Positions 37,110-61,701 of a stretch of DNA of 64,000 nt are shown here, piece by piece. The notes under the pieces were generated by a model, which did no database searches, was not told where the DNA came from, and saw nothing but the letters and a program-made list of their open reading frames with translations. Position 1 is the first letter of the stretch. The number at the start of each line of letters is the position of its first letter. This stretch comes from Syntrophales bacterium (GTDB taxonomy: Bacteria > Desulfobacterota > Syntrophia > Syntrophales > UBA6807). A program made the position numbers and the translations under genes. The DNA lies in NCBI GenBank assembly GCA_040767195.1, contig JAXGPA010000003.1:32001-96000 (forward strand), read 5' to 3'.

Positions 37110-37118
37110 AAGGAATCG

Positions 37119-44755: not shown

Positions 44756-45493
44756 ATGAGGCAAGGAAAAAAAGCCCACGAAGGCCCCCGGGCGCTTCTT
44801 TCCGGGGTGCCGGGCCTCTCCGGCGCCGTGGTCCTTTTTCTTCTCCTGTTTCTGTCACCGCCCATGGAGCCATCCTTCGGGGTTGAAAATGCCGGAAAAG
44901 GAGACGCTCGTACCATGATTTCCCTGCCGAAACCACCTTTTTCCAAAACCCTTTCCATCGAGGAGGTCCTGGAAAAACGACGATCCGTCCGGAGATTCGC
45001 CCGGCGTCCCCTGACGGAAATGGAGATTTCCCGCCTCCTCTGGGCGGCCCAGGGAGTCACCGGCGGCGGCAGGGGCCGGACCGCGCCGTCCGCGGGGGCC
45101 CTCTACCCTCTCGAGGTTTATCTCGTCATCCCCGAAGGGGTGTACCGGTATCATCCCCAAAATCACGAACTCGGGATTCACCGGAAAGGGAATTTTCTCG
45201 GACAGCTTTCCGAAGCCGCCCTGGGCCAGGCCTCCGTCCGGGAGGCGCCGGCGGTGATCATTCTCGCGGCCGTGTACGAACGGGTCACCGGAAAGTACGG
45301 AAAACGGGGGGAACGGTACGTCATCCTGGAAGCGGGTCATGCCGCCCAGAACATCCACCTGGAGGCGGTGGCCCTCGGCCTGGGATCGGTTCCCGTCGGG
45401 GCTTTTCAGGACAGGTCCGTTCAGTCCGTCCTGGAACTTTCTCCGAACGAGGAACCCCTTTACCTCATTCCTGTAGGAGAGCCCCGGCCGTGA
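44756..45493 (+). CDS. SagB/ThcOx-family FMN-dependent nitroreductase-like protein
   Basis: RRSVRRF, LLWAAQG, RTAPSAGALYPLE, EAGHAAQN..L.A..LGLG. Start uncertain; hydrophobic N-terminus. Confidence 0.85.
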   Translation: MRQGKKAHEGPRALLSGVPGLSGAVVLFLLLFLSPPMEPSFGVENAGKGDARTMISLPKPPFSKTLSIEEVLEKRRSVRRFARRPLTEMEISRLLWAAQGVTGGGRGRTAPSAGALYPLEVYLVIPEGVYRYHPQNHELGIHRKGNFLGQLSEAALGQASVREAPAVIILAAVYERVTGKYGKRGERYVILEAGHAAQNIHLEAVALGLGSVPVGAFQDRSVQSVLELSPNEEPLYLIPVGEPRP

Positions 45494-45755
45494 CGGTCGG
45501 GGTCATAATATAACATATAGAATTTATTTCATTTATAACAGAAAAGGAGATTGTCCGGGAATAAAAATCTTGTAAAAACATCATTTTCGTAATACATTAC
45601 CCAGGCCGGAAGTTGTGTTCGATGGAATGCAAAATATAGATACGGATGGAGACATTCATTCCGGGGAGGAGGTGGTCGATCGGAGACATAGACAGGAATT
45701 AACGGTTTGTAAAAAGGGTTATCCATTAATGGAGTCATCAGGAAGGAGATAAACC

Positions 45756-46460
45756 ATGGAAAGAGACGGAAACAAATTCCCTGATGTCCTGAAAAAGGAA
45801 ACGACCCGCCGGGGCTTTTTGAAAGGAGCCGCCACCGCAGCGGGCGGTGCGGTAGCCCTGGCCGCCATGGGCGGTGTCGCGGCGCCGAAAAAGGCGGCGG
45901 CGCAGGCGCCCAAAGATGTCATGCGCTACCTCTTCGCCGAGAGGCAGAACTGCACGGGCTGCCGGGCCTGTGAATATGCCTGTTCGGTTTATCACACCGG
46001 TGTTGTCAGGCCCTCCGTAGCGCGGGTTCATGTTCTCAAGTACCGGGGCGTGGTGGATGTGCCGGTCATCTGCTGGCACTGTGACGACGCGCCCTGTATC
46101 GAAGCCTGTCCCACAACCCCCAAGGCCATTCAGAAAGACAAGGTTTCCAACGGGATCATCCTGGACGAGAAAATCTGCCTGGGAGCCAAGTGCCTCAAGT
46201 GCGTCGATGCCTGCCCGGCGGAATTCCTCCGCGTGAACCCGGACATCGGGATGCCCCTCTTCTGCGACCTGTGCAAGGGCGACCCCGAGTGCGTCAAGGC
46301 CTGCGAGGCCCAGTCGGGAAACCCCCAGGGACCGTGCCTCATGGCGAACAAGCTGGGGTTCGGGGTGAACCAGGCCTACCGGAACGTGACGCCCGAGGAG
46401 GCGGGACAGGACCTCTTCGATCTCCTGTTCTATCCTGCTAAACCGGATGGAGGGAGGTGA
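45756..46460 (+). CDS. Tat-exported 4Fe-4S electron-transfer subunit of AOR
   Basis: Twin-arginine TRRGFLK plus an Ala-rich h-region ending AAA/AQA. Cys motifs CTGCRACEYAC, CWHCDDAPCIEACP, CLGAKCLKCVDACP, CDLCKGDPECVKAC. Confidence 0.9.
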   Translation: MERDGNKFPDVLKKETTRRGFLKGAATAAGGAVALAAMGGVAAPKKAAAQAPKDVMRYLFAERQNCTGCRACEYACSVYHTGVVRPSVARVHVLKYRGVVDVPVICWHCDDAPCIEACPTTPKAIQKDKVSNGIILDEKICLGAKCLKCVDACPAEFLRVNPDIGMPLFCDLCKGDPECVKACEAQSGNPQGPCLMANKLGFGVNQAYRNVTPEEAGQDLFDLLFYPAKPDGGR

Positions 46461-46465
46461 GAACC

Positions 46466-48280
46466 ATGGCAGCATCAAAAGGTGGGTATTTTGGAAGGAT
46501 CCTGGAGATCGACCTGTCGAAGCAGCAGTTCAAGGCCCGGCCGCTGTCCGATGAACTGGCGAGAACCTACATCGGCGGGGCGGGGCTCGGCGCCTATTAC
46601 CTGTTTACGGAAATGAAGGCGAAAGCCGATCCCCTGGGTGCAGACGCGCCCATTTTCATCGGCACGGGCCCCCTGAACGGGACCTACTGTGTCGCCACCC
46701 GGATGAGCATCGTCAACAAGAGCCCGTACACCGGTCTTTTGAGCCATGCCGAGGTGGGCGGCCACACGGGAAACGAAATCAAGTGGGCCGGCTGGGACGG
46801 GATCCTCATCAAGGGAAAATCGAAGAAACCGGTCTGGCTTTTCATCAAGGACGACACCGTCCAGTTCCGGGACGCCTCGAAGCTCTGGGGCAAGGACACG
46901 GACACGGCGTCGGAGATGATGCTCGCCGAAATCAAGGACCCCTATGCCCGGACGGCCGTCATCGGTCCGGCGGGCGAAAACGGGGTGCCCTATTCGTGCG
47001 TCGTCATCGAACGATTCCGGGCGGCCGCCCGGACGGCCACGGGGGCCGTCATGGGTGACAAGAAGCTGAAGGGTTTTGCCGTCAGGGGAACGAAGGCCGT
47101 TCCCGTGGCGGACAATAAAAAGTTTTACCTCGCCGCCTCCACGGCCAAGCAACTGGCCGTGGACAAGGAAGGCTGGCAGGGAATCAAGCGGTGGGGGACG
47201 GCGGGACTCCTGGAACTGAAGCACTGGGTTTCCGGTTCCCTCATCACGAAGAATTTCCAGACCACCTGGTACCCCGACATCGAGTACATCGGGGCGGAAG
47301 AGGCGAACCGCCGCTTCTGGAAGCGTCACGTGGCCTGCAACCACTGCCCCGTTCACTGCATGAAGCTCGGCGTTATCCGGGACGGGAAATACGCGGGTCT
47401 CATCGCCGAAGGCCCCGAATACGAGACGGGCGGGCTGCTGGGCAGCAACTGCGGCGTTTCCGACTTTGACGGCATGATGGCCGCCATCGAGGCCTGCGAT
47501 GCCCTGGGTCTCGATTCCATTTCGACAGGCGGTGTCCTGGGATTCACCATGGAGTGCGTTCAAAGGGAGATTCTCACCCCCAAGGACCTGGACGGTGTGA
47601 ACCTCGAGTGGGGCGACACCGACGCCATGGTGGAGATGATCCGGAAAATCGCCTACAAGGAAGGCAAAGCCGGGAAGCTTCTCAGCCAGGGCGTGGCGAA
47701 GATGGCGAAAGAAATCGGGAAAGGGTCCGAGGATTTCGCCGTCGTGTCTAAAGGTAAGGAAATCGCGGCCCACGACCCCCGGGGGGACAAGGGACGCGGT
47801 TACAGTTACGCCATGGGAACCTGCGGCGGGGACCATCACGAGGGAACCGACGCGGCCACCCTGGCCCGGTGGTGCATGATCAACTCGCTCGTCATGTGTT
47901 CGTTCGTCGGCGGCTATCCCTGGGGCAAGGAAACGCCCCCGGTGTTCACCAACATGCTGAACCCGCTGTGCGGCTGGAACATGACGGACGACGAGTTCTG
48001 GAAAACAGCCAGGAGAATCATGACCCTGGAACGGGCCTTCCAGGTCCGGGAAGGAGTCAGCCGGAAGGACGACGTCCTGCCGAAACGGTTCACCACGGAA
48101 ACACTGCCGGAGGGCCCGAAGAAAGGGGCCATCTACAGCGCCGAAGACACGAAGAAGATGCAGGACAGCGTCTACGGATACTTCGGCTGGGACGACAACG
48201 GGATCCCCACGGAAAAGACCCTGAGCGATCTCGGTCTCGGGTTCGCCGTGGCGGATGTAAAGAAAGCGGTTAAAGGTTAA
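46466..48280 (+). CDS. aor: tungsten-dependent aldehyde:ferredoxin oxidoreductase family catalytic subunit
   Basis: GRILEIDLS, KSPYTG, GPAGEN, GAVMGDKKLK, CNHCPVHC, GPEYET, CDALGLDSIS, HDPRG, D.LPKRF, Y...GWD..G.PT. Confidence 0.92.
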   Translation: MAASKGGYFGRILEIDLSKQQFKARPLSDELARTYIGGAGLGAYYLFTEMKAKADPLGADAPIFIGTGPLNGTYCVATRMSIVNKSPYTGLLSHAEVGGHTGNEIKWAGWDGILIKGKSKKPVWLFIKDDTVQFRDASKLWGKDTDTASEMMLAEIKDPYARTAVIGPAGENGVPYSCVVIERFRAAARTATGAVMGDKKLKGFAVRGTKAVPVADNKKFYLAASTAKQLAVDKEGWQGIKRWGTAGLLELKHWVSGSLITKNFQTTWYPDIEYIGAEEANRRFWKRHVACNHCPVHCMKLGVIRDGKYAGLIAEGPEYETGGLLGSNCGVSDFDGMMAAIEACDALGLDSISTGGVLGFTMECVQREILTPKDLDGVNLEWGDTDAMVEMIRKIAYKEGKAGKLLSQGVAKMAKEIGKGSEDFAVVSKGKEIAAHDPRGDKGRGYSYAMGTCGGDHHEGTDAATLARWCMINSLVMCSFVGGYPWGKETPPVFTNMLNPLCGWNMTDDEFWKTARRIMTLERAFQVREGVSRKDDVLPKRFTTETLPEGPKKGAIYSAEDTKKMQDSVYGYFGWDDNGIPTEKTLSDLGLGFAVADVKKAVKG

Positions 48281-48414
48281 AGAAATTTCAACGACGGGCC
48301 GGTGCGGAAACCCGCATCGGCCCCCATGACCGATGTCAGCAACAGACGCTTCCGGTGAAAAGGGAAGATCCAGCCGGTGAGGTAACCTATCTGCAGGCTG
48401 GAGGGATGTGAACC

Positions 48415-49101
48415 ATGGGCTTTACAAGACGGGATGCCCTCCGGGTCCTCACGGGCGCCGCCGTTTCCGGCCTTTTCTTCGCTTTTCTCAAGATCCCCGG
48501 GGCGAAGGCCCTGCCGAGGCCTCCGGGCTCTCTCACGGAAAAGGCGTTTCTTCAGTACTGCACGCGGTGTTACCGGTGCATCGACGTCTGTCCCGCCGAC
48601 GCTCTCCGCCCGGCGGGCCTTTTCGATGGCATCCCCAACCTGGGGACCCCCGTTCTGGACTGGAAGAAGTGCATCTTCTGCCAGGAGTGCATTCGCGTTT
48701 GCCCCACCGGGGCCATCGTCAAGATACCCGAGGACGAGATCGACATCGGGAACGCCGTCATCGACCGGGACACCTGCCTGGACTGGACCCGTAAAAGGCG
48801 CTGCGGCATCTGCTACAAGGCCTGTCCCTACGATGCCATACGCCTTGAAGGGAGACGCAATCCCGTCGTTATCGAAGAGAAGTGCACGGGATGCGGTCTC
48901 TGCGAGCAGCGATGTCCCACGGACCCCAAGTCCATCGTCGTTTTTTACGACAAGTACCGGCGTTTCGACCCGCCGGAAGGGACCTTCATGGTCCGCCTGG
49001 AGGACCGGGTGGAGCCTTACGAATATCCGCCACCCGATTTCAGAACCTGGTTCATGAGAAGATTGGAAAAACTGGCAAGACAGCATGGCCTTATCGATTG
49101 A
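48415..49101 (+). CDS. NapG/MauM-like Tat ferredoxin
   Basis: TRRDAL, RPPG...E..F...CTRCYRCIDVCP, GTP, G.A.ID...CL.W....CGICYKACP, CTGCGLCEQRCP. Confidence 0.85.
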   Translation: MGFTRRDALRVLTGAAVSGLFFAFLKIPGAKALPRPPGSLTEKAFLQYCTRCYRCIDVCPADALRPAGLFDGIPNLGTPVLDWKKCIFCQECIRVCPTGAIVKIPEDEIDIGNAVIDRDTCLDWTRKRRCGICYKACPYDAIRLEGRRNPVVIEEKCTGCGLCEQRCPTDPKSIVVFYDKYRRFDPPEGTFMVRLEDRVEPYEYPPPDFRTWFMRRLEKLARQHGLID

Positions 49102-50314
49102 TCCGGGCATTCCGGGAGACCCTTCCATGGCCGTCCTCGTCGTCGGCGGCGGCGTGGCGGGGATTCTCGCCGCCCTCGATCTTGCCCGGGCAGGGCGACC
49201 GGTCACCCTGGTGGAACGGTCCCAACGCCTGGGAGGCCAGGTGGCCCGCCTGGACAAGATCTATCCCACCGACCACTGTGCCTTCTGCCCCCTCTGGACG
49301 GACATTCGAAACTGCCTCGAACATCCCGGAATCACCGTTCTGTCCTCGGCGACGGTCCGTAAACTGGAAAGAACGGGGGATCGATGGGCTGTCCGGATCC
49401 TTCGGGAACCCCCGGTTATCGAGGAACGCCTCTGCATTTTCTGCGGTCGCTGCGAATCCGCCTGCCCGGAAAGGGCCGTCCGGCCCCTCCTGGACCAGGC
49501 TTATCCCCCGGTGTACCGCATCGACGGGGACAGGTGCACCCATTGCGGGCAGTGTGAACCCGTATGCCCCACGAAAGCCATCGATTTCAATCGGAGGTCC
49601 GTGGAAGAACGGATCGTCGTCCAGGAGGTCCTCTGGGCCGCCGGCTTTCAGGACGGCGACTACAAGCCCCTTCCGGAATACGGTTACGGAACCCACCGGG
49701 ATATCATGACCGCCCTCGAGTTCGAGGAATGGACGGCCGAATCGGGGCCCAACGGCGGGCGGATCCTCCGGAAATCGGATCTCCGGGAGCCGTCCCGGGT
49801 GGCCTTCATCCAGTGCGCCGGTGCCCGGGACCTGAGAAACCTTTCCTACTGTTCCGCCGTCTGCTGCATGCACGCCCTGAAACAGGCTGCGTGGGTCAAG
49901 AAACGGAAACAAGACATTAATTGCACAATATTTTATACGGATTTACGGGCAGTTGGAAGAGATTACTTCAAGTATTCCATTAATAATGTTCCCGGGGAGC
50001 CTCTTCGTCTCATCAGGGGTCGCCCGGGCCTCGTTGTCGCCCTGCCCGGCGGCGGCATCGCCGTCACATACGAAGACACCCTGAAACAGGAACGAAGGAT
50101 CGAGCGCTTCGATCTTGTCATATTGAACGGAAACCTGAAGCCTTCCCTCAAGCCGGAAGGGGAACCGGGAACGCTTTCCCTGGACGGGGAGGGTTTCGTC
50201 GACATCGCCGTCGGTTTCGGCTGCGGATTTGCCGTCGAACCGGCCGATATCATGGATTCGGCCATTCAGGCGGCATCGGTTTCCATGCGCATTCTCGGAC
50301 GAGAAAACACTTGA
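49085..50314 (+). CDS. hdrA: HdrA-like FAD/Fe-S protein 1
   Basis: GGGVAG, LDKIYPTDHCAFC, inserted 2x[4Fe-4S] domain, AFIQCAGARD..YCSAVCCMHALK, FYTDLRA.G. Start 49085 or 49127. Confidence 0.82.
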   Translation: MALSIDPGIPGDPSMAVLVVGGGVAGILAALDLARAGRPVTLVERSQRLGGQVARLDKIYPTDHCAFCPLWTDIRNCLEHPGITVLSSATVRKLERTGDRWAVRILREPPVIEERLCIFCGRCESACPERAVRPLLDQAYPPVYRIDGDRCTHCGQCEPVCPTKAIDFNRRSVEERIVVQEVLWAAGFQDGDYKPLPEYGYGTHRDIMTALEFEEWTAESGPNGGRILRKSDLREPSRVAFIQCAGARDLRNLSYCSAVCCMHALKQAAWVKKRKQDINCTIFYTDLRAVGRDYFKYSINNVPGEPLRLIRGRPGLVVALPGGGIAVTYEDTLKQERRIERFDLVILNGNLKPSLKPEGEPGTLSLDGEGFVDIAVGFGCGFAVEPADIMDSAIQAASVSMRILGRENT

Positions 50315-50323
50315 GGAAAAATC

Positions 50324-52027
50324 ATGGCTGAAACGGTCGTCCTTCTTTGCCGGTGTTTCGGTGAAATCGACGGCGTCGTCGACCTCGACGGGATTGCCGG
50401 GCGCTTGAGAGAGGAAAACCAGGACACGTCCGTGTACCTGCTCGATTCCCTTTGCCAGGAAGACGACGGGCCCAAGATCGAAACGCTCTTCAGGGAGGAA
50501 AAAGCCCGGAAGGTCATCACCGCCCTTTGCGCCGGCGACCGGGGACACCATTCCCGCCGGAACGCCCTGCGAAATGCCGGTGTCGGGCCATCGGGGCATG
50601 CGACGGTGGACCTCCGGGAAGGGTGCGCCTGGATTCACCGAAGCGACCCCGCCGGTGCGACGGAAAAGGCCCTGGATCTTGTTTCCATGGCCCTGGCCGC
50701 CCTGGCGGAGAAAGAAACCTCCCGGGATGTCACCACGGCCGTTCATCCCCGCTGCGCCATTCTCGGCGCCGGCCCGGCGGGGCTGGCGGCGGCGGCGGCC
50801 CTGGCCGGTCAGGGCATTCCCGTTCATCTCATCGACCGGGCCGACCGGCCCGGCGGAATGCTGAACCTGATTTCCAAAATATACCCGGAAGACGACGATG
50901 CAAAAAGCCGGATCGACCCCTTTGTCCGGGAAATGGAAGTGAACGAACGCATCACCTTTCATCCCCGTTCCCGGGTGACCGCGGTGACGGGATTCGCCGG
51001 AAATTTCAAGATCACCGCGGAGGGACCGGACGGGCCTTTCCGTTTTCGGGCCGGCGCCGTCATCATCGCCACCGGCGCCGGTGTTTTCCTGCCCCGGGGC
51101 CTTTACCGGTACGGGGAACTCAAAGAGGTGATCACGCAGATCGAACTGGAACGGCAGTGGATCAAGGGGACGCCGGAAAAGAAACGGTTTGCCTTTATCC
51201 AGTGCGTCGGGGCCCGCTCTCCTGAAAGGCCTTACTGTTCCACGATCTGCTGCCCCTCAAGTCTGAAAAACGCCGTGCGGGTCGTGGCGGAAATTCCAGG
51301 CGGCGAGGCGACGGTCTTCCACCGGGACATCATGACACCGGGAAGCGTCCTGGAGGAATATTACCGCCGGTCCATGGAAAAAGGAGTCCGTTACGTCCGG
51401 TTCCAGGAAGACGGCCCCCCGGAAATCCTCGGGGAAAAGGGTGTCGAGGCGGTCCGGGTCCGGGATGCCGGAAGCGGAAAAGAGCAGGTCCTTCCGGTGG
51501 AGACGGTCGTTCTGAGCACGCCCCTCGTCCCGAACAGGGACAATGGCGCCCTGTCCGCCCTTTTCCAGGTAGGGCTGGACAGCCATGGTTTCTTTTCCGA
51601 GACGTATCCCCTCCATCCCCTGGAAACCCGCCTGGATGGTATCTTCATTGCTGGTTCCGCCCGCTGGCCCGTGTCGTCGGAGAAGGCCGTGGAGCAGGGG
51701 CAGGGGGCCGCCATGAAAGCCCTGGCCCTCCTGAGACGGGACCGCATTTCCGCCCTGTCTCTCAGCCGTACGCCGGAAGAAAAGCCGGGCCACGGAACCG
51801 TGGCGGAATACGCCTGCACGGGCTGCGGCAACTGCGTGGCCGTGTGCCCCTTCGAAGCCTGTGCTCTCCAGGAAAGGGACGGCGGCCGATTCGTGAGCCG
51901 GGTGAACAAGATGCGCTGCAAGGCCTGCGGAAGCTGCGTGTCCGTGTGCCCCAACGGGACCATGCAGATACCGGAGCACAATTACCGCGTGACGGCCGCC
52001 ATGATCCGCCGGTCTTTTTCGTCGTGA
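50324..52027 (+). CDS. hdrA: HdrA-like FAD/Fe-S protein 2 with C-terminal ferredoxin
   Basis: N-terminal CRC...LC...C...REGCAWIH, GAGPAG, FIQCVGAR..YCSTICC, ET..DGIFIAG, C-terminal CTGCGNCVAVCP and CKACGSCVSVCP. Confidence 0.85.
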   Translation: MAETVVLLCRCFGEIDGVVDLDGIAGRLREENQDTSVYLLDSLCQEDDGPKIETLFREEKARKVITALCAGDRGHHSRRNALRNAGVGPSGHATVDLREGCAWIHRSDPAGATEKALDLVSMALAALAEKETSRDVTTAVHPRCAILGAGPAGLAAAAALAGQGIPVHLIDRADRPGGMLNLISKIYPEDDDAKSRIDPFVREMEVNERITFHPRSRVTAVTGFAGNFKITAEGPDGPFRFRAGAVIIATGAGVFLPRGLYRYGELKEVITQIELERQWIKGTPEKKRFAFIQCVGARSPERPYCSTICCPSSLKNAVRVVAEIPGGEATVFHRDIMTPGSVLEEYYRRSMEKGVRYVRFQEDGPPEILGEKGVEAVRVRDAGSGKEQVLPVETVVLSTPLVPNRDNGALSALFQVGLDSHGFFSETYPLHPLETRLDGIFIAGSARWPVSSEKAVEQGQGAAMKALALLRRDRISALSLSRTPEEKPGHGTVAEYACTGCGNCVAVCPFEACALQERDGGRFVSRVNKMRCKACGSCVSVCPNGTMQIPEHNYRVTAAMIRRSFSS

Positions 52028-52052
52028 AAGGCCGGGGCGGCGAGGAAAAGCC

Positions 52053-52553
52053 ATGGACGCCGAAAAGAATAAACAGGGATTGAAAGGGGGGGAGGAAAGA
52101 GGGAAGGCGGGAGCGCCATCCCCGAAGATCCTCGTTTTCGCCTGCCGCTGGTGCGGCGGGATCGGCGCCGGCCGGGCGGGCTGGAAACGCCTGGACCTTC
52201 CCATCTCCTTTCGGGTCATCCCGGTGGAGTGCGCCGCCCTGGTGGAACCGGACGCCATTTTCAGGGCCCTGGCGTCAGGCATCGACGGGGTGGCCGTCCT
52301 GGGCTGTCACATCGGGGGGTGCCGCTACAACGAGGCCAATCATGCCGCCCTGAAGCGGCTGGAACTGGTCAAGGTCCTTCTCGACACGGTGGGAATCGGG
52401 GGGCGGCGGCTTCTCCTCGCTTTCGGGACCGCCCACGAGGATCACCAGTTCGCCGAGGTGATCCGGAATTTTCATGAATCCATCGGTAAGGAGCCCTCTC
52501 TGGGACCCTGGCTCGGGGCAGGTGAAGATGTTTTCCTGCGGCGGGAGGAATGA
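52053..52553 (+). CDS. mvhD: MvhD/FlpD-like [2Fe-2S] adaptor subunit
   Basis: ILVFACRWCG, RVIPVEC, G.DGV...GCHIGGCRY..AN, LL..VGI...RL. Confidence 0.88.
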   Translation: MDAEKNKQGLKGGEERGKAGAPSPKILVFACRWCGGIGAGRAGWKRLDLPISFRVIPVECAALVEPDAIFRALASGIDGVAVLGCHIGGCRYNEANHAALKRLELVKVLLDTVGIGGRRLLLAFGTAHEDHQFAEVIRNFHESIGKEPSLGPWLGAGEDVFLRREE

Positions 52554-53398
52554 TGGAAGAAATCCGGAAAAAGGCCCGGGAACTTCTCGAAAAAAATGAC
52601 GCCGACGGTGTTCTCGCCCTGCGGCAGGGGGAAGAGGCCGCCGTGAAGCCCTATCTCTTCCGGGAACTCGGCGAAATCGACCATCTCGTCACCGAGCCCA
52701 AGTGGCCCCTGGCCAAGACGGCCATGAGGATCCTCCAGTCCTCTCCCCGGGATTTCCGTCTTGCCGTGGTCGTCCGGGGCTGTGACGACAGGGCCCTGGT
52801 GGAACTGGCCAAGAGAAACCAGGTCATGGAAGAGAACATCCGGTTCATCGGCCTGGCCTGCACGGAAGAACAGGCGGGAAGATGCTTGTGTGAAAGACCC
52901 TACCCCCGGACGATTCACGGGGGAAAGCCCCAGCCGGGCGTTCACTTCCTCCAGGACGAGCGGGTTTTCAGCCTCCTCGAGGGCGACCCCGCGGAAAGAA
53001 TGGAACGGTGGGCGGCCATTCTCAGGCGCTGCATCAAGTGCTACGGGTGCCGGAACGCTTGCCCGATCTGCGTGTGCGTCCCCTGCAAACTCGAGGACGA
53101 CGTGTGGGTGGAGAAAGGTTCCATCCCCGCGGAGATGCTCGTTTTTCACCTCATCCGGGCTTTCCACCTGTCCGACGCCTGTGTTGCCTGCGGGGCCTGC
53201 CAGGAGGCCTGTCCCGTTTCCATCCCCGTCATGGCCCTCCAGTTCGCCATGCGCCAGGCCCTGAAGGACCGCTTTGGGTACGAGCCGGGGCTCGACGGTG
53301 CCCGAAAGTCGCCCGTCCTGAAAAACTTCCTGGAGGAACCGGAGGCGGGGCAGGACTATCCCGCCTGGATCACCCACGGGGGCACGGGACATGAGTGA
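52550..53398 (+). CDS. FdhB/FrhB-like Fe-S subunit
   Basis: VVRGCDDRALVEL, RCIKCYGCRNACPICVCVPC, FHLIRAFH...CVACGACQEACPV.IP. Confidence 0.82.
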   Translation: MMEEIRKKARELLEKNDADGVLALRQGEEAAVKPYLFRELGEIDHLVTEPKWPLAKTAMRILQSSPRDFRLAVVVRGCDDRALVELAKRNQVMEENIRFIGLACTEEQAGRCLCERPYPRTIHGGKPQPGVHFLQDERVFSLLEGDPAERMERWAAILRRCIKCYGCRNACPICVCVPCKLEDDVWVEKGSIPAEMLVFHLIRAFHLSDACVACGACQEACPVSIPVMALQFAMRQALKDRFGYEPGLDGARKSPVLKNFLEEPEAGQDYPAWITHGGTGHE

Positions 53399-55427
53399 TT
53401 CCTTCGTCAGGACCATCTGTCCCTACTGTGGAACGGGGTGCGGCCTGATCCTCAGGGTCCTCGACGGGGCGGTCGTCGAGTGCCTTCCCGACCGGGATCA
53501 CCCCGTGAGCCGGGGGCATCTCTGTGTCAAGGGGTGGTACGCCCACGAGTTCATTCATCACCCCGAGAGGCTGACGACGCCCCTCGTCCGGGAAGGTGAC
53601 CGGTTCCGGCCCGTCTCCTGGAAAGAGGCCGTCTCCCTGGCGGCGGAGAGGTTCAGGGCAACGGCGGAGAAATACGGGGGAAATGCTATCGGGGGGCTGT
53701 CCTCGGCGAAGTGCACGAACGAGGAGAACTACCTCTTTCAGAAGCTGATCCGTGCCGCCTTCGGGACAAACAACGTGGACCACTGCGCCCGGCTCTGCCA
53801 CGCCCCCACGACGGTGGCCATGGCCCGGTCCCTCGGGAGCGGGGCCATGACCAATTCCATCGCGCACCTTTCCCGCGCCGGGTGCATCCTGATGATCGGA
53901 TCCAACGCCGCGGAAAGCCACCCCATCATCATGGGGGAAATCTACCGGGCCGTCGATGGCGGGGCCACCCTCATCGTCGTCGATCCCCGGAAAACGGCGG
54001 CGGCGGAAAACGCCCATATCCACCTGGCCATCCGGCCGGGCACGGACATTCCTCTCGTCTGCGGCATGATGAGGCACATCATCGATTCAGGACTTCACAA
54101 CGGGTCCTTCATTGGCGAGAGAATGGAGGGGTTCGAGGAACTCAGGGCCTTTCTTTCCGACTGGACGGTGGAACGGGCGGCCCGGGAATCGGGTATACCC
54201 GAGGCGGACCTGCGCGAGGCCGCCGAGCTTTTTGCCCGGGCGCGGGAAGGGGCGGTGGTCTACTGCATGGGCATCACCCAGCACGCCTGCGGCACCGCCA
54301 ACGTCTTCGCCCTTTGCGATCTCGCCATGCTGTGCGGCCACGTGGGCCGGGAAGGTTCGGGCATCTATCCTCTCCGGGGACAGAACAACGTTCAGGGGGC
54401 CTGCGACATGGGGGCGCTGCCCAACGTCTACCCGGGATACCAGGCGGTCAGTGATCCCGCCGTCCGGGACACGTTCCGGAAGGCCTGGGGAAGGGATCTG
54501 TCCGACCGGCCGGGGCTCACGGTCACGGAAATGATCGGTGCCGCAGGAGAGGACATCCGGGCCCTCTTCATCATGGCGGAGAACCCCGCTCTCAGCGACC
54601 CCGACGTGAATCACGTGCTGGAGTGCCTCCCGGCCCTGGATTTTCTCGTCGTCCAGGACATCTTCCTCACCGAGACCGCCCGGCTCGCCCACCTCGTCCT
54701 GCCCGGGGCCTGTTATGCCGAAAAAACGGGAACTTTCACGAATACGGAGCGGCGCTTTCAGCTGCTTCGAAAAGCCGTGGAGCCGCCCGGGGACGCCGAG
54801 GACGATTTTTCCATTCTCTGCCGTCTCGGCCGGGCCCTGGGGCTCGATTTTCCCTATCGAAACCCTGGTGAGGTCATGGAGGAAATCGCCGCCATGGCGC
54901 CGGCTTACGGGGGGATCCGCTACGGCCGTCTCGAAAAGGAGGGGATTCAGTGGCCCTGCCCGAACATCGAGCACCCGGGAACGGCCTTCCTGCACAAGGA
55001 CCGATTCACCCGGGGAAAAGGCCTTTTCGTGGTACCGGACCACGTACCGCCCCGGGAATCCCCCGACGGAGACTATCCCTTCTGGCTCAGCACGGGCAGG
55101 ATGTTTGCCCACTACCACACGGGAACCATGACCCGCCGGTCAGCATTTCTGAACCGCGAACAGGAAGAGCCTTACGTGGAAATTCACCCGGAAGACGCCC
55201 GAGAGCTTGCTCTCGAAGATGGAGACCCCGTTCGGATCACCTCCCGCCGGGGCAGCATCGTCACGACGGCGCGGGTGACCAGGCGTGTCGCCCGGGGGGC
55301 CCTCTTTGCCCCGTTTCATTTCACGGAGGCCCGGGCCAACCGGCTGACCAACCCTGTCCTGGACCCGCTGTCGAAAATTCCCGAATTCAAGGCCTGCGCC
55401 GCCAGGGTGGAGAAGATCAAGGCATGA
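53391..55427 (+). CDS. fdhA: cytoplasmic formate dehydrogenase alpha subunit (Mo/W-bisPGD, Cys-ligated)
   Basis: CPYCGTGC..LCVKG, NNVDHCARLCH, MGITQH, PLRGQNNVQGACDMG, EKTGTFTNTERR, HYHTGTMTRRS, KIPEFK. No signal peptide. Confidence 0.92.
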   Translation: MSDSFVRTICPYCGTGCGLILRVLDGAVVECLPDRDHPVSRGHLCVKGWYAHEFIHHPERLTTPLVREGDRFRPVSWKEAVSLAAERFRATAEKYGGNAIGGLSSAKCTNEENYLFQKLIRAAFGTNNVDHCARLCHAPTTVAMARSLGSGAMTNSIAHLSRAGCILMIGSNAAESHPIIMGEIYRAVDGGATLIVVDPRKTAAAENAHIHLAIRPGTDIPLVCGMMRHIIDSGLHNGSFIGERMEGFEELRAFLSDWTVERAARESGIPEADLREAAELFARAREGAVVYCMGITQHACGTANVFALCDLAMLCGHVGREGSGIYPLRGQNNVQGACDMGALPNVYPGYQAVSDPAVRDTFRKAWGRDLSDRPGLTVTEMIGAAGEDIRALFIMAENPALSDPDVNHVLECLPALDFLVVQDIFLTETARLAHLVLPGACYAEKTGTFTNTERRFQLLRKAVEPPGDAEDDFSILCRLGRALGLDFPYRNPGEVMEEIAAMAPAYGGIRYGRLEKEGIQWPCPNIEHPGTAFLHKDRFTRGKGLFVVPDHVPPRESPDGDYPFWLSTGRMFAHYHTGTMTRRSAFLNREQEEPYVEIHPEDARELALEDGDPVRITSRRGSIVTTARVTRRVARGALFAPFHFTEARANRLTNPVLDPLSKIPEFKACAARVEKIKA

Positions 55428-55888
55428 AGAGAGAGGACGACAGGCTCGCCCGGGTCAGGAAATATTCCAAGGCATACGCCTGTGTCGAGTGCGGGCGGTG
55501 CGTCGCCGTGTGCCCCATGGCGGAGATGTACGCCGACTTTTCCATCGAAATGTCCCCCCGGGGCATCATTCGGAAGGCCCTTCGAGACGGCGGGGGTGTC
55601 CTTACCGACGAAAACATCTGGTACTGCACGGAGTGCAATGCCGGAACGGACGTCTGTCCCCAGGGCGTGAGCTGCCGGGACCTCATCCGGGGACTCCGGG
55701 AACTCGTCCTGGAGAGGCATCCCGCGGAAAAGGTGTCTTATTGCCGGGATTGTGGAAACCCCTTTCTCGCCCTACCGGTGGAACGCTTCGTCATGGGGAG
55801 ACTGGAACAGGAACCGCCCAATGTCCGGGCCCTTCTGGAAAGGTGTCCCGCCTGCAGGCGGCTCACCTATGCCCGGCGAAACGCCTGA
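55424..55888 (+). CDS. HdrC-like 4Fe-4S protein with C-terminal CxxC...CxxC extension
   Basis: CVECGRCVAVCP, SPRG, IWYCTECNAGTDVCPQGV, then CRDCG...CPACR. ATG overlaps the fdhA stop (ATGA). Confidence 0.8.
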   Translation: MKREDDRLARVRKYSKAYACVECGRCVAVCPMAEMYADFSIEMSPRGIIRKALRDGGGVLTDENIWYCTECNAGTDVCPQGVSCRDLIRGLRELVLERHPAEKVSYCRDCGNPFLALPVERFVMGRLEQEPPNVRALLERCPACRRLTYARRNA

Positions 55889-55919
55889 CCCCCGCCCGGC
55901 GGGGCTGAAACGACGGAAC

Positions 55920-57239
55920 ATGGAAACCAAAAAGGCAAAAACGGACCACGATTCCCCATCCCCTTTTCTGAACCTGGAGGATCTCCGTCCCAGGCTGGTG
56001 CCCCGGGAAAGATTCACCGACCGGTTCATGCCCCGGCGCAGCGGGCAGCTTCTTTTCGACCCGTCCCGGTGCACCGGGTGCGGTACCTGCGAGATGGTCT
56101 GCGGAAGCCGGAACGTGTCCCTCGTGGCCCCGGCCTCGGCCAGCGTGAGGGTTTTCAGGGATGAGGGGCGGGGGAAGAATTTCGCCCTCTATTGCCAGCA
56201 CTGCCGCCGGCCCCTTTGCCTGGAGGCGTGCCCGACACGGGCCATCACCAGGGGGGAGGACGGTATCGTTCGTATCGACAGGGTTTTCTGCGTCGCCTGC
56301 GGCCTGTGCACCATGGCCTGTCCCGAGGCGGCGCCGCTGCGGGACCATCGGACGAAAGAGATCCACAAGTGCGATCTCTGTGAAGGGGACCCCCTGTGCG
56401 CCCGTCACTGCCCCGAGGGGGCCCTTTCCTTTACCCGGGGCAAGGCTTTCCGCTGGATCAAGGGACTCCGGTGGACCGTCCAGGCTCTTTTTTTCCTGCT
56501 CCTCGTTTTCATCCTCATCGGCACGTTCTGTTCCTTCCAGGCGGGGGTCGTGAGCCTTTCCTGTCCCACCGGGATTCTTCAGAACATCGCCTCCACGAAA
56601 ACCATCGTCCTCACCGGAATCGCCACCGCCCTGGCTCTGCTCCTCCTGACGGTTATCGCCGGCAGGCTTTTCTGCGGCTGGATCTGCCCCTTCGGGTTCG
56701 TTCTCGACCTGGTCGGCAAAGTTGTTCCAAAGAAAATCAGCCCGCCCCGCTGGCTGGCCAACAGGCTGAACAAGTACGGTCTTCTCGCCGGCGCCGTGGG
56801 TGGAAGTTTCGCCCTCGGTTACCAGGCCTTCTGCACCGTCTGTCCTATCGGGACGCTGTGCCGCTCTTACGGCGTTCAGGGGTTTTTCCGGGGGGCTGAA
56901 CTGGCCATCGTTCCCGCCCTGGCGGCCCTGGAGGTCACGGAAAGGCGCTCCTGGTGCCGCTATTTCTGCCCCGTGGGGGCCCTTCTCGCCCTGGTGGCAT
57001 CGCTCGGGCTCATCAAGATCGTCATCGGCGCAAAAAAATGCAAGAAATTTTCCTGCGTCCAGTGCGCCGAAGTCTGCCCAGTCGGGATTATCGACGGAAA
57101 CCTGCTCCGGGAAGGGGTCTCCCCGAAGATTCCCATGACCGAGTGCATCTCCTGCTTCCGGTGCATCGACCGCTGTCCTTACGGGGCGGCGAAAATCCGG
57201 TTCCGCTGGCAGAAGGGCGTTCCCGGCGAGGAGGCGTGA
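55920..57239 (+). CDS. fusion of a 4x[4Fe-4S] ferredoxin (DmsB/HydN-type) with a NapH/MauN-like membrane protein
   Basis: N-terminal CTGCGTCEMVC, CQHC..PLCLEACP, CVACGLCTMACP, KCDLC...P.CARHCP. Then TM helices with GRLFCGWICPFG, FCTVCPIG, WCRYFCPVGA and C-terminal CVQCAEVCP / CISCFRCIDRCP. Confidence 0.85.
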   Translation: METKKAKTDHDSPSPFLNLEDLRPRLVPRERFTDRFMPRRSGQLLFDPSRCTGCGTCEMVCGSRNVSLVAPASASVRVFRDEGRGKNFALYCQHCRRPLCLEACPTRAITRGEDGIVRIDRVFCVACGLCTMACPEAAPLRDHRTKEIHKCDLCEGDPLCARHCPEGALSFTRGKAFRWIKGLRWTVQALFFLLLVFILIGTFCSFQAGVVSLSCPTGILQNIASTKTIVLTGIATALALLLLTVIAGRLFCGWICPFGFVLDLVGKVVPKKISPPRWLANRLNKYGLLAGAVGGSFALGYQAFCTVCPIGTLCRSYGVQGFFRGAELAIVPALAALEVTERRSWCRYFCPVGALLALVASLGLIKIVIGAKKCKKFSCVQCAEVCPVGIIDGNLLREGVSPKIPMTECISCFRCIDRCPYGAAKIRFRWQKGVPGEEA

Positions 57240-58561
57240 TGAGCCCCTACAAATGCTATTACAACCACAACGTCGGTCTGGTTGACCTCACGGAAAAGAC
57301 CTTCCGCGTCCTCCCCCTGCCGCCGGAGGGCGTCCGGGAGCACCTGGGCGGGGCTCCCCTGAACGCCTATCTTCTTGGCCTGTATGAAGGGAAGGACCCT
57401 CTCGTCCTGGGGACGGGACCGCTCACGGGCAGTTTCGCTCCCGCGTCGTGCCTTCTCGTGGCGACTTTCCGGCCCCCGGGGTCCTCGAGGCCGGCCCACG
57501 TTCCCCTGACCCTTCGAACGGGTCCGGAAATGAAGTTCAGCGGACTCGACTTTCTCGTCATTCACGGCCGTTCTTCCTCGCCGGTTGTACTGAAAATCAA
57601 GAACGGGGAAGGAACCTTCGCCGGCGGGGAGGGGATTCACGGTAAAAATCTCACCGAAGCCCAGGCGTCGCTTCATCGGTTCGGGGAGTTTCGCGCCGTT
57701 CTTCTGGCAGGCCGGGCGGGGGCGCTCCAGGTACCCCGGGCCACTGCCCAGGTCGGACAGGCCGGCAGTTTCGACAAGGCGGGGCTGGCCCTCTGGATGG
57801 GCCGAAAAAACCTGGAGGGGATCCTTTTTCAGGGAGCCGGGGGGCTTTTCTTTGCCGGTGACCACGCCGGCCTTTCCCTGGAACTGGGAAAAAGAATCCG
57901 GTTGAAGGAAGGAAAGCCGGAAGGCTTCCGAAGCCTTCTCAAAAAAACAGGTGGAAATATCCTGGCGGGTGACCTTTTCCGAGGGACGGACGAAAAGATC
58001 ATGGCGTGCTACCACTGCCTGTATCCCTGCATGACCCGGCTGTCCTTTTCCAACAGGCGTTTCGTTTCGGGCCGGGATAAAGTGCGGCGGGAATCGGTGT
58101 GGCTGGCCGACTCCGTGGGCTTTACATCGCTGGTCGAAAAAAGACCGGCCGACGTCCTGCCCCTTTTAAAAGCCTGCCGGGAATTCGGTCTCGATCCACA
58201 GGCCGTGGTTCCCGTCCTCAACAGAGAAGACCCTTACAGCGACACCCTGGTCCGCCTGGAGTCCCTCCTTCTCGAGAATAACGGGAAAGAGCCGCCGGTG
58301 CAGGGGGAGGTGGCTTCTTTCGCGAGCGGGATGCCGTCCCCGGACGTCCCCGGCGGGGAGGAGGAAACCGCCTCGACGAAAAAGAAGATGGCCATGGCCA
58401 TGATCCTGGGCATCTGCCCCCTTTTCCTCTTCCTCGTACCCTGCCTGGACGTGCCTGATTACCTGAATTTTCTCCCGAGAGAAAAGGGAGCCTCGGCCTT
58501 CTACAGGGAAAAAGTCGAAGAACTCTCGGAGAGGCTCATCGGGGAATATCCCGTCCCCTGA
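57239..58561 (+). CDS. degenerate, truncated AOR-family protein (AFOR N-terminal domain)
   Basis: GLVDLT, HLGG, LVLGTGPLTGS..PA, G.EMKFSG.D.LVI.GRS..PV.L.I, MGRKNL, ACYHCLYPC, C..FGLD, LGICP. Lacks KSPxTG, GPAGE and EYET; 440 aa. Confidence 0.75.
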   Translation: MSPYKCYYNHNVGLVDLTEKTFRVLPLPPEGVREHLGGAPLNAYLLGLYEGKDPLVLGTGPLTGSFAPASCLLVATFRPPGSSRPAHVPLTLRTGPEMKFSGLDFLVIHGRSSSPVVLKIKNGEGTFAGGEGIHGKNLTEAQASLHRFGEFRAVLLAGRAGALQVPRATAQVGQAGSFDKAGLALWMGRKNLEGILFQGAGGLFFAGDHAGLSLELGKRIRLKEGKPEGFRSLLKKTGGNILAGDLFRGTDEKIMACYHCLYPCMTRLSFSNRRFVSGRDKVRRESVWLADSVGFTSLVEKRPADVLPLLKACREFGLDPQAVVPVLNREDPYSDTLVRLESLLLENNGKEPPVQGEVASFASGMPSPDVPGGEEETASTKKKMAMAMILGICPLFLFLVPCLDVPDYLNFLPREKGASAFYREKVEELSERLIGEYPVP

Positions 58562-59099
58562 TCAATATCCGTATGTGTTTTTTCAATTCCTCCCCCGTGA
58601 CGATGCCCGTGATTTTTTCCTCCAGGCGGCCGTTTTTGAAAAATAGAAAGGCTGGTGTCTTTTCGACACCGTAACGCTTCGCCACAGCGGGATTTTTTTC
58701 CAATTCCATCTTCACCATTTTAACCCCTCCGGCGTAGGCCGGCGCGATCCTGTCGAAGATGGGGACGAGGACCCGGCAGGTGACGCACCAGGGCGCCCAG
58801 AGGCACACCAGGGCGGGGCCGGGAAAATCGAGGATCTCGTTCTGAAAGGAAGCCTCCGCCAGTTCCGTGCTCGTTCCCTGGCAAAGAGGCGTGCCGCAGC
58901 GCCCGCATTTCGGCCGGTCCTCGAGGCGGTCTTCCGAAACGAGATTGCGGGTTCCGCAGTTGAGGCACCGGATGATGAGTTCGTCCAGGGAGGCCCCGCA
59001 TTTTCCGCAAAGGGGCCTGAACCCCACGGCCGAACCGGGAATCCGGTTTTTCTGTCCGCATCGGAGACACCGTATGACAAGATCGTCGGAAACGTTCAT
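58536..59099 (-). CDS. thioredoxin 2 (TrxC)-like protein with a duplicated N-terminal zinc ribbon
   Basis: CLRCGQKNR..CGKCG and CLNCGTRN..CGRCG, followed by WAPWCVTC and a thioredoxin fold. Confidence 0.82.
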   Translation of the reverse strand: MNVSDDLVIRCLRCGQKNRIPGSAVGFRPLCGKCGASLDELIIRCLNCGTRNLVSEDRLEDRPKCGRCGTPLCQGTSTELAEASFQNEILDFPGPALVCLWAPWCVTCRVLVPIFDRIAPAYAGGVKMVKMELEKNPAVAKRYGVEKTPAFLFFKNGRLEEKITGIVTGEELKKHIRILIRGRDIPR

Positions 59100-59119
59100 G
59101 ATATCGGGGTGACGAAACG

Positions 59120-59932
59120 TTAAAACATGTACGAGGTGAATCGGCAATACTCCTGGAACCCCAGGGTGCGATACAGGCTGTCGGACCCTTCCAGGGCGTG
59201 AAGGACCCCGAGTCCGTAGCCCAGGGTTTTCGCGTCCTGAAGCGTCTTCGACACCATGGCTTTCCCGATCCCCCTGCCGCGGTATTCGGGCAGGACCGCC
59301 AGGTTGTAGACCCCCGCGGCCCCGGCTTCCATGAAAAGAGAGGCCGCCGCCACGGGCCGCCCTTCATGAAGGGCCACGTAATTCCGCAGGGGCGTGTCCC
59401 CCTCGAAGCCGAGGCCTTCATAGGCTTCCCTGAAAAAATCGGCCGCCCGGGGCGGGAGGGAGAAGACGGTGGAAAACGGTTGAAAGAATTGCCTCAAAAG
59501 GCCAGCGTCGGTGGCGTCTTCCACGGACACCCCCTCGGGAAAGGATGATAAACCTTCAAACAGGCTCAAGTCAACCGCCATGCCCACGGCGTCCGCGGCG
59601 ACTGTCAACCCGTGCCCTTGAAGATGACTTCCAATATCCTCGGGAGCCGATGAAGGGCCGACCCACCAGAGACCGGGAAGGCCCCTTTCCCGGAAAATCC
59701 GCAAGGCGTCTTCGATGGCCTCGTCGATTTCCCCGGGTGCCAGGCGGGCACTGAATATCCCGTTGCACAGGGGAAAAGGCACACCGCCCACGAACTGGAT
59801 CAGGTCTTTTCCCACGTAAATTTCCGCCTGGGGATGGGCTTCCAGGGCCATCCACGCTTCAACGAGGTTGTCTTCTATGATTTTAATGACTTGTAAGATT
59901 ACCTGGCCGACATAGGGATCCTGCTGTTCCAT
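59120..59932 (-). CDS. GNAT family acetyltransferase
   Basis: C-terminal AGVYNLAVLPEYRGRGIG, LY..LGF. Confidence 0.87.
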   Translation of the reverse strand: MEQQDPYVGQVILQVIKIIEDNLVEAWMALEAHPQAEIYVGKDLIQFVGGVPFPLCNGIFSARLAPGEIDEAIEDALRIFRERGLPGLWWVGPSSAPEDIGSHLQGHGLTVAADAVGMAVDLSLFEGLSSFPEGVSVEDATDAGLLRQFFQPFSTVFSLPPRAADFFREAYEGLGFEGDTPLRNYVALHEGRPVAAASLFMEAGAAGVYNLAVLPEYRGRGIGKAMVSKTLQDAKTLGYGLGVLHALEGSDSLYRTLGFQEYCRFTSYMF

Positions 59933-59953: not shown

Positions 59954-60685
59954 TCAGGTGTTTTCCGGGACCCTCTCATCCTGTTCCTTTGCGCCGGGAT
60001 TCCGTTCCGGCCTTTTTGTTTCAAGCCGTTGAACCCACAGGGGGTGTCTCTTCCGGGCATAATCCAACCGGACGGAACCGGTGAAGATACTTCGAACGAG
60101 GGGGCGGTTGGGTTTGAGGATCAGGGCCCCCAGGTGGGCCACAAAAGCCAGGATGAAGAGAATGAAAGCGGTGTTGTGAACCCAGGTGGCAATCATGACG
60201 AGAGGGGGTGACAACTGGGGATCGAACAGGTTCTTCCAGGTTTTCACGAGACCGGAAAGAATGAGCAGTCCGATAATGAAAGCCATTCCGGCGTAGGCGA
60301 GCCTCTGTTCGGGGAGGTACTTGTCGAAAGGCGGTTCCTCCCCCTTCCCGAAAAAGGAACGGATCACCTCCACGGAAGCCCGGAGGTCGCCCTTCCGGGG
60401 CATCATGCCGTCATGGCGGAGAAGTCCGTGATAAACGAGGTGAAACGCGCCCGCGGCGATGAAGACAATGGAGGCGGCGTAGTGAATCTTGAGGGACGTG
60501 ATGTAGTCTCCCGACCAGCCGAGGCCGGGAAGTTCTGTGATGAAATACCGCCTGGCGATGGGCAGTTCGAAAAGGCCCGTCAGAAGCAGGACGAGGCCCG
60601 AGAGAGCGATGGTCCAGTGCTCGACCCGTTCGAGGAGGCTGTGCCGGACGACGACGCCTTTTTTTTCCAGTATCCGATCCGTCAT
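59954..60685 (-). CDS. membrane cytochrome b subunit (FdnI/PhsC-like)
   Basis: RHS..ER.EHW, four TM helices with heme-ligand His (IHY, FHLVYH, VHN, AHL), KYLPEQRLAY, SIFTG.V....A...HPLW. Confidence 0.85.
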   Translation of the reverse strand: MTDRILEKKGVVVRHSLLERVEHWTIALSGLVLLLTGLFELPIARRYFITELPGLGWSGDYITSLKIHYAASIVFIAAGAFHLVYHGLLRHDGMMPRKGDLRASVEVIRSFFGKGEEPPFDKYLPEQRLAYAGMAFIIGLLILSGLVKTWKNLFDPQLSPPLVMIATWVHNTAFILFILAFVAHLGALILKPNRPLVRSIFTGSVRLDYARKRHPLWVQRLETKRPERNPGAKEQDERVPENT

Positions 60686-60688
60686 TTC

Positions 60689-61675: not shown

Positions 61676-61701
61676 GAAGCCTCCTGAAAACGCGATGCGA
61701 T

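Follow-up and report, generated by a model that had tools for sequence, protein, structure and literature searches.

The window analysed here is a 64,000-nucleotide (nt) stretch of DNA from a Syntrophales bacterium whose genome of 2.39 Mb is 98.8% complete. Positions 45756-58561 of the window are packed with 11 open reading frames (ORFs) on the + strand, numbered g1 to g11 in 5'-to-3' order, which were labeled as genes for an exported aldehyde oxidoreductase (AOR) family enzyme, NapG- and NapH-like redox proteins, and a cytoplasmic HdrA-MvhD-formate dehydrogenase (Fdh) module. These genes are conserved together as a block. We favor, tentatively, the reading that they encode one membrane-anchored flavin-based confurcating system, in which electrons from aldehydes and from ferredoxin would be used for the reduction of CO2 to formate. 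Adjacent genes are spaced by 0 to 42 nt throughout, except for 134 nt between g2 and g3, and overlap at g6/g7, g7/g8, g8/g9, and g10/g11, which confirms the tight co-directional arrangement of 11 genes reported in a first-pass annotation of this DNA. The gene labels given there were borne out by Pfam, NCBIfam, and PDB searches; among the 11 proteins, only FdhA (g8) exceeds a curated equivalog cut-off (TIGR01591, 838 versus 666 bits). Judging from the N termini of orthologs, the AOR gene g2 probably starts at the ATG at 46466 and the first HdrA gene, g4, at the ATG at 49127, in an ORF open from 49085.

Conservation of the cluster

Co-occurrence was followed with g2, g4, and g10 as markers in one sample of 221 genomes of the same order, in which they were found in 48, 48, and 49 genomes, respectively. 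All three were present in 44 genomes, none in 169, and one or two in 8. Seven of these eight partial cases were examined at the locus and are cut by contig ends; the locus of the eighth, G575, was not inspected. The first-pass annotation had asked whether the gene order is conserved and whether the AOR/NapG and Hdr/Fdh parts occur apart in other genomes. The parts co-occur, and the cluster is present in about one-fifth of the sampled genomes of the order. Beyond the order it is rare (4 of 401 genomes of the phylum, two of them from outside the order). Orthologs of the g10 fusion protein with 66 to 77% identity were detected in 12 of 60 relatives, and the full 11-gene order was found on a single contig in regions from seven relatives and in G565, with varying flanks.

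A metagenome survey covered the best 80 of 160 loci, which include near-duplicates and kin and are therefore not independent. The order g2 to g11 was exact in 33 of the 35 loci with at least 8.4 kb upstream of g10; in the two exceptions, FdhA had moved behind g11 or no g11 was present within 1.4 kb. Directly after g10, g11 was found in 67 of the 68 loci with room for it. In the relative G397, FdhA is placed after g10, and no g11 ortholog was found in this genome. With order and content maintained next to variable flanks, the cluster exceeds what chance would bring together.

The closest named matches are Syntrophales and Syntrophaceae metagenome-assembled genomes (MAGs). Among other named genomes, g10 is carried by MAGs of Desulfosarcina, Syntrophobacter, Desulfovibrio, and Mailhella and by Desulfobacterium (Desulforapulum) autotrophicum HRM2. 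In HRM2, Aor4 (ACN14540.1) shares 67% identity with g2 and ACN14548.1 shares 60% with g10. The two are eight accessions apart, the same spacing as between g2 and g10, so that synteny of the cluster apparently extends to this strain, and because HRM2 carries these orthologs, the cluster is testable in a cultured species. The HRM2 genome paper of 2009 probably drew part of this locus without interpreting it: the legend of its Fig. 4 lists hdr-mvhD-fdhB-fdhA loci, a ferredoxin, an Fe/S protein, and Aor5 (PMC2702500), and the text available gives the hdrA loci no Tat, NapGH, or transmembrane interpretation and describes no experiment on them.

Table 1. Features of the cluster region, in window positions
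Feature	Positions	Strand	Basis
AT-rich stretch before g1, probable cluster promoter	45494-45755	+	sequence; sigma70-like scan
g1, WorS: four-cluster Fe-S small subunit, Tat signal	45756-46460	+	Fer4 domains
g2, WorL: tungsten AOR-family catalytic subunit	46466-48280	+	AFOR_N, AFOR_C; PDB 1aor
12-bp G+C hairpin after worL, terminator-/attenuator-like	48296-48323	+	spacer z -3.2
g3, NapG/MauM-like four-cluster protein, twin-arginine leader	48415-49101	+	NCBIfam NapG
g4, HdrA-like subunit 1	49127-50314	+	5odc_A, E 1e-70
g5, HdrA-like subunit 2	50324-52027	+	domain layout versus HdrA
g6, MvhD [2Fe-2S] adaptor	52053-52553	+	PF02662, E 6e-33; Cys conserved
g7, shortened methanogen-type FdhB	52550-53398	+	PDB matches
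g8, cytoplasmic FdhA	53391-55427	+	TIGR01591, 838 bits
g9, HdrC-like two-cluster protein with C-terminal four-Cys module	55424-55888	+	PDB HdrC chains
g10, WorS-like four-cluster domain fused to NapH/MauN membrane domain	55920-57239	+	TIGR02163, predicted fold, motifs
g11, pterin-less WorL-fold accessory subunit	57239-58561	+	predicted fold, invariant Cys

Protein modules and related systems

Gene identities, cofactor motifs, twin-arginine translocation (Tat) leaders, and co-inheritance are read from the sequences. The g1 leader has a full Tat motif (TTRRGFLK, h-region, AxA), and its twin arginine is kept in 11 of the 11 genome orthologs shown; the g3 leader carries S/T-R-R in 34 of 35 loci, and tatC is encoded in the host genome. 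NapG is the top NCBIfam match of g3, with 100 bits against a cut-off of 269. The g2 protein has AFOR_N and AFOR_C domains and 1aor as its top PDB match (E 6e-104); no signal peptide was found on it, and since g2 itself has no leader, we infer its export together with g1.

With residue numbers following PfAOR, g2 retains R76, T243, E313, H448, and the four cluster cysteines. Three of the four residues of the AOR second-shell set T243/E313/Y427/H448 are thus present; the fourth, Y427, is His in g2 and in 120 of 120 g2 homologs. The same Tyr427-to-His change occurs in an active AOR, that of C. formicoaceticum (PMC12096430). By its residues, g2 appears to keep an aldehyde-type active site and is a putative aldehyde-converting enzyme. 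Tungsten is favored as its metal, because tup transport genes are nearby: tupA, tupA, tupB, and an ATP-binding cassette ATPase gene with a TOBE domain lie at 35265-38839, 7 to 10 kb upstream of the cluster. In G052 (L031 326-6701) and other genomes of the same genus, the Tat-worS/worL pair is present in a tandem copy; a second substrate is possible for the extra copy, as it deviates around the H448 motif.

The exported pair resembles the class V WORs (E. coli YdhYVWXUT and CsWOR41), in which WorL and a Tat-bearing WorS are membrane associated and face the periplasm (PMC13328260), and the locus has the features that define this class operationally, a Tat WorS beside WorL plus a membrane subunit. 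A 2026 classification (Putumbaka et al.) places Tat-bearing class V WORs in clade 41 only, and its text, as far as available, reports no activity for any periplasm-facing WOR and names no Hdr, Fdh, or NapGH partner of class V (PMC13328260). Judged by profile score, identity, residues, and tree, g2 is not of the YdhV type: it scores 223 bits with the YdhV model NF007354 (cut-off 868), its identity to YdhV is 31% over the N-terminal half, YdhV (clade 41) lacks the aldehyde-type residues T243, E313, and H448 that g2 keeps, and in a 25-row tree the g2 clade (97/95) excludes YdhV, whose branch is long and whose placement is unsure.

By sequence, g4 to g9 match the methanogen Fdh-MvhD-HdrA-HdrC complex minus HdrB. 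Structures of methanogen FdhAB-MvhD-HdrABC (7BKB, 8RVU, 9T1S, 5ODC) are the closest structural relatives of g4, g5, g7, and g9, and both systems have FdhA, an FdhB-like protein, MvhD, an HdrA core with E356/K409, and HdrC. However, in the complex encoded here HdrB is missing, the HdrA homodimer is replaced by two unequal halves, FdhB is shorter by about 100 to 130 amino acids (aa), HdrC bears an additional four-Cys module with a predicted membrane-protein contact, and periplasmic genes are joined to the set.

The two HdrA-like proteins differ in what they keep. The g4 protein has the flavin adenine dinucleotide (FAD) core, an inserted ferredoxin domain, and C194/C197, without the N-terminal and C-terminal Fe-S domains, and its motifs are kept in 9 of 9 orthologs. 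The g5 protein has the N-terminal Fe-S domain, the FAD core, and the C-terminal ferredoxin, without the inserted ferredoxin, and C194/C197 are missing from it in 10 of 10 orthologs. Both proteins retain E356, K409, and the four core [4Fe-4S] cysteines (9 of 9 and 10 of 10 orthologs, respectively). In HdrA, E356 and K409 are the bifurcating-flavin residues, and C197 ligates the N-terminal cluster of the partner subunit. Complementary domain loss and the split of C194/C197 point to g4 and g5 as two complementary half-HdrAs that would form an obligate heterodimer.

FdhB (g7) has 282 aa, compared to 380 to 414 in methanogen FdhB, and 9t1s_M, 7bkb_E, and 8rvu_E as top PDB matches. In FdhA (g8), the Cys ligand and the His and Arg residues are present; across loci the ligand is Cys in 44 of 50 and TGA (selenocysteine) in 6 of 50. 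The HdrC-like g9 protein (154 aa) has no membrane segment, scores 31 bits with the QmoC model (cut-off 300), and matches best the HdrC chains of methanogen Fdh-Hdr structures; the cysteines of its added module, C107, C110, C141, and C144, are invariant in 52 of 52 sequences. In G015 (L027 14695-15154), a single-contig genome, the g9 ortholog is broken by an apparent frameshift. The CCG domain of HdrB was not found in any of the 11 cluster proteins, and the CCG matches of the genome are all on other contigs. A separate HdrL (1479 aa)-MvhD-FdhB-like-HdrC-HdrB-FlxB-FlxA locus at C1:579000-588600, with its HdrCB pair at 581-582 kb, is the sole source of HdrB found in the host genome.

The membrane part of g10 matches TIGR02163 with 114 bits, under the cut-off of 213, and its motifs, two CX3CP and two C-terminal clusters, are invariant in the loci compared. 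Its model has a predicted local distance difference test score (pLDDT) of 73.5, and the WorS chains 8c0z_C and 9mqx are the best fold matches; no solved-structure match to the membrane domain was obtained in these searches, which are dominated by the ferredoxin domain and barely probe the membrane domain. Considering that g10 has no leader and has the NapH topology, its soluble domains probably face the cytoplasm. Together, g3 and g10 resemble NapGH, NosGH, and MauMN, in which a four-cluster protein with a Tat leader is likewise partnered by a membrane protein bearing two CX3CP motifs and a pair of C-terminal clusters. In contrast to these systems, neither protein reaches its family cut-off, NapH shares one chain with a cytoplasmic WorS-like domain, and the periplasmic enzyme is a low-potential dehydrogenase, not a terminal reductase.

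The last gene, g11, had been labeled a degenerate AOR. The AOR fold is well supported by a model with a pLDDT of 88.7 and template modeling scores of 0.74 to 0.77 to AOR large subunits, but decay is not, as g11 is intact and conserved. C257, C260, C264, and C393 are invariant in 51 of 51 sequences, and the regions of T243, E313, and H448 are missing, suggesting that g11 is an accessory subunit with an AOR fold that has no pterin but retains one Fe-S cluster. Its interpretation as a pseudogene was ruled out by the intact ORF, 23 invariant columns in 51 rows, and the confident fold. An identity of about 28% to g2 over the N-terminal third and a long separate branch, in a tree with biased composition and rooted by midpoint only, speak against a recent duplicate of g2. 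A scan of genome contigs with g11 returned only four loci, two of which are ordinary AORs. Many short (380 to 500 aa) WorL-like relatives of g11 were found at lower scores (P0303-P0365); pterin-less WorL folds may occur in further contexts.

Complex prediction for adjacent subunits, a check suggested with the first annotation, was run with g10, g11, and g9 folded jointly as three chains, in three runs and with three controls. HdrC-like g9 is predicted to dock on the ferredoxin-NapH fusion g10 with a score of 0.74 (runs 0.76, 0.74, and 0.69), whereas the best control, in a set including one with g10 replaced, scored 0.00. The runs share at least 95% of contacts, and the partner pLDDT is at least 76. 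In the predicted contact, the C-terminal module of g9 and residues beside its clusters meet both Fe-S domains of g10, and the g9 interface residues are more conserved than the remainder of the protein (0.80 versus 0.59). In methanogens, electrons pass between HdrA and HdrB by way of HdrC (PMC5861303). As the contact is predicted at HdrC, NapH, NapG, and WorSL would be placed on the high-potential arm of Hdr.

Two further systems combine similar parts. QmoABC also pairs two HdrA-like subunits with an MvhD domain and connects an HdrC-like domain to a membrane subunit; QmoC joins the HdrC-like domain to a quinone-reactive membrane domain, and menaquinol confurcation was proposed for this complex (PMC3333476). 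Here, however, the membrane part is of NapH-type Fe-S and not haem b, HdrC is a separate protein, no aprBA adjoins, the 98.8% complete host genome has no aprA over the cut-off, and the locus encodes its own FdhAB, NapG, and WorSL. In Bam (BamBCDEFGHI), a WOR-family enzyme is coupled to HdrA, HdrC, and MvhD-like modules, and menaquinone was proposed as the high-potential acceptor (PMC12096430). BamB is the weakest of nine PDB matches to g2, is cytoplasmic, and lacks the second-shell residues of g2, and unlike Bam the cluster has no BamD, HdrB-like, or NADH-module genes. By gene content, the layout resembles a hybrid of methanogen Fdh-Hdr and Qmo that stands outside both, and also outside Bam and WOR clade 41. 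Other Hdr loci were described without an AOR-Nap link in the texts available (10.1101/2024.08.04.606487, PMC7082340, PMC5947623, PMC5109826), and no description of a joined AOR-NapGH-Hdr-Fdh system was found in a literature search that left subscription journals largely outside its reach. The cluster is, on its sequence, an uncharacterized arrangement of known modules and a variant of HdrA-module systems.

Electron path and alternative readings

Co-inheritance and the predicted HdrC-NapH contact support the earlier proposal that periplasmic WorSL and NapG, membrane NapH, and cytoplasmic HdrA-HdrA-MvhD-Fdh belong to one system. We propose that g4 to g9 would form an FdhAB-MvhD-HdrA/HdrA'-HdrC complex inside the cell, similar to methanogen formate dehydrogenase-Hdr, with the place of HdrB taken by the NapH fusion g10, which may be capped by pterin-less g11. 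Exported WorSL would oxidize aldehydes and pass the electrons via NapG to NapH; a (methyl)menaquinone step or side exit is probable on this path. Medium-potential electrons would then travel from g10 to HdrC and the HdrA flavin, be joined there with electrons of reduced ferredoxin, and exit through MvhD, FdhB, and FdhA, reducing CO2 to formate for a syntrophic partner. The machine is expected to be reversible. Beyond the export of g2 and the g4/g5 heterodimer, we infer here a contact between g3 and g10, bifurcation, quinone use, the substrate, and the direction.

A quinone step in this path is plausible, since the host genome encodes MenA, an Etf-linked membrane Fe-S oxidoreductase (EtfAB), and two cytochrome b-linked membrane Fdhs. 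This set of Etf, membrane oxidoreductase, and membrane Fdh is that of fatty-acid syntrophs, and neither dsrA nor an aprA over the cut-off was found in the genome. MenA-like genes were found in 5 of 5 carriers tested (3 over the cut-off) and mqnA/D in only 9 of 61 relatives, which suggests salvage of a quinone precursor or a different route in these syntrophs.

Energetics were estimated with a membrane potential of 150 mV. Once this potential is taken into account, aldehyde electrons would reach the cytoplasmic side at -430 mV only when acid and aldehyde are in a 1:1 ratio; with acid in 100-fold to million-fold excess, the value would be -371 to -252 mV. Such potentials suit joint donation with reduced ferredoxin more than a wire acting alone. 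A plain flow of low-potential electrons from aldehyde to CO2, as first suggested, is thus disfavored, both by electrons at about -250 to -370 mV at realistic ratios and by the link predicted at HdrC.

Several points weigh against the confurcating reading, beginning with transcription. A terminator-like hairpin after the AOR gene makes one transcript for the whole cluster doubtful. In the window this stem (spacer z -3.2) is a 12-bp G+C stem without a U tract, the reason why a standard terminator scan did not flag it. A stem follows worL in 33 of 34 distinct loci, with a U tract in 24; under a looser criterion the counts are 34 of 34 and 12. No U-tract stem was found after g1 or g3 to g10 in the scan of the same loci. 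A sigma70-like -35/-10 pair overlaps the hairpin in about 13 of 34 g2-g3 spacers, mostly related ones; it was not found in the spacer of the window, and some spacers have just 76 to 88 nt. From these sequences, g1-g2 and g3-g11 may be regulated apart. With the hairpin placed behind worL, transcription of the genes for the Tat-exported AOR pair is probably in part separate, or in excess, with napG coupled to the hdr genes. Upstream of g1, a weak sigma70-like match (8/12) is located near 45570 and a stricter scan returned none; no terminator-like stem was found after g11 in the window. Metatranscriptome contigs from four runs of one study cover 29 to 30 of 30 bins and the flanks too, and one bridges g2-g3-g4. 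They were rejected as proof of expression or co-transcription, since contigs of up to 19 to 33 kb are possibly DNA.

The remaining objections concern substrate, contact, quinone, and energy. His427 and the GGDH motif of g2 are common to WOR5/ASOR, which acts on sulfonates too (PMC13328260). The mark for the docking score was reached by 116 of 157 solved pairs and 2 of 215 mismatched pairs, counts that apply only roughly to a three-chain job, and the g10 interface is not more conserved than the remainder of g10 (0.55 versus 0.60). Genes for de novo menaquinone synthesis (mqnA/D, mqnC/E, menD) were not found in the host genome, and mqnA/D was found in none of 13 cluster carriers among 61 genomes. 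Confurcation of menaquinol and ferredoxin to formate would cost +51 kJ at standard potentials, and at the formate levels of syntrophy the balance would be only about +1 to -14 kJ. Sulfate reducers bearing orthologs may run the system in reverse.

The opposite direction is the alternative that survives best, although we consider it doubtful. Formate would be oxidized and HdrA would bifurcate to ferredoxin as the low arm and, via HdrC-NapH, to menaquinone as the high arm. WorSL-NapG would be either another electron donor at that quinone site or an acceptor for some high-potential substrate. This is the direction of methanogen FdhAB-HdrABC (PMC5861303) and would yield -51 kJ at standard potentials; formate-using sulfate reducers hold orthologs, and the host genome has further formate-producing routes. 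However, most carriers found are kin of a genome in which dsrA was not found, and syntrophs presumably must dispose of electrons rather than reduce quinone.

A stricter form of the confurcating reading, a single membrane-spanning supercomplex with a continuous Fe-S path from WorSL through NapG, NapH, and HdrC into a confurcating HdrA heterodimer and no free quinone, seems unlikely to us. More improbable is a quinone-free low-potential wire leading inward from aldehyde to CO2, in which energy would be stored as charge separation and the HdrA flavins would serve as relays. The chain of Fe-S proteins is unbroken on both sides of the membrane, the standard driving force of -31 kJ is close to the 29 kJ needed to move two electrons at 150 mV, and the missing de novo menaquinone genes would agree with such a wire. 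Yet the predicted entry is HdrC, E356/K409 are kept in both HdrAs, no energy margin remains once acid exceeds aldehyde, MenA-like genes occur in carriers, and NapH is reported to react with quinol (PMC5928378, PMC8238504). The argument that no quinone is present and the wire is hence direct was rejected, given the MenA, EtfAB with membrane oxidoreductase, and two cytochrome b-linked Fdhs encoded.

The terminator-like element after g2, the separate HdrCB pair at C1:581-582 kb, and distant carriers with a moved FdhA and sometimes no g11 would fit two loosely linked modules sharing a locus, one a detoxifying aldehyde:quinone oxidoreductase of the periplasm (WorSL-NapG-NapH), the other a soluble Hdr-Fdh complex with external HdrB or another acceptor. 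We regard this as quite improbable, because the break falls between AOR and NapG and not between NapG and HdrA, napH stands behind the Hdr-Fdh genes, the g9-g10 contact is predicted, and among the genomes checked every single-part case is cut by a contig end. Formate-driven reduction of periplasmic carboxylates to aldehydes over a Bam-like low-potential arm, the alternative offered in the first-pass annotation, is very improbable and the least likely direction: it would need only about +2 kJ at standard potentials with the help of 150 mV, Bam does couple a WOR-family enzyme to HdrA modules (PMC12096430), and g10 or g11 could be the low-arm partner of g4, but the predicted link sits on the high-potential arm, the cluster has no high-potential sink (HdrB or an NADH module), and periplasmic aldehydes have no evident use.

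Neighboring genes and significance

Upstream of the cluster, the tup genes are followed by a PadR gene and an amino-acid-kinase-fold gene (40285-41142), the latter of which resembles molybdenum storage proteins; this whole group is 5 to 10 kb away from the cluster. A SagB/nitroreductase-family gene with an N-terminal hydrophobic segment is located at 44756-45493, and orthologs 1 to 4 kb upstream of g1 were seen in three genomes of the same family only. Downstream, on the - strand, a thioredoxin gene with two N-terminal zinc ribbons (TrxC-like, 58536-59147) overlaps the end of g11 with its own end. It is followed at 59954-61822, also on the - strand, by two genes, for a HybA/HmcB-like Fe-S protein with a twin arginine and for a cytochrome b561, next to which no catalytic subunit is encoded; they form an orphan periplasmic quinone module.

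The locus bears on the role of HdrB-less HdrA modules in syntrophs (PMC5947623) and on the purpose of the cytoplasmic clusters of NapH proteins. The confurcating system would add an unrecognized formate route in anaerobic digestion, and its study would yield the first structure of a NapGH-type module. If the quinone-free supercomplex were true, it would be the first example of flavin-based confurcation supplied with electrons from outside the cell, it would mean that NapH proteins can conduct electrons to their own cytoplasmic clusters, and it would provide an exported aldehyde-active WOR from outside the only clade reported as exported.

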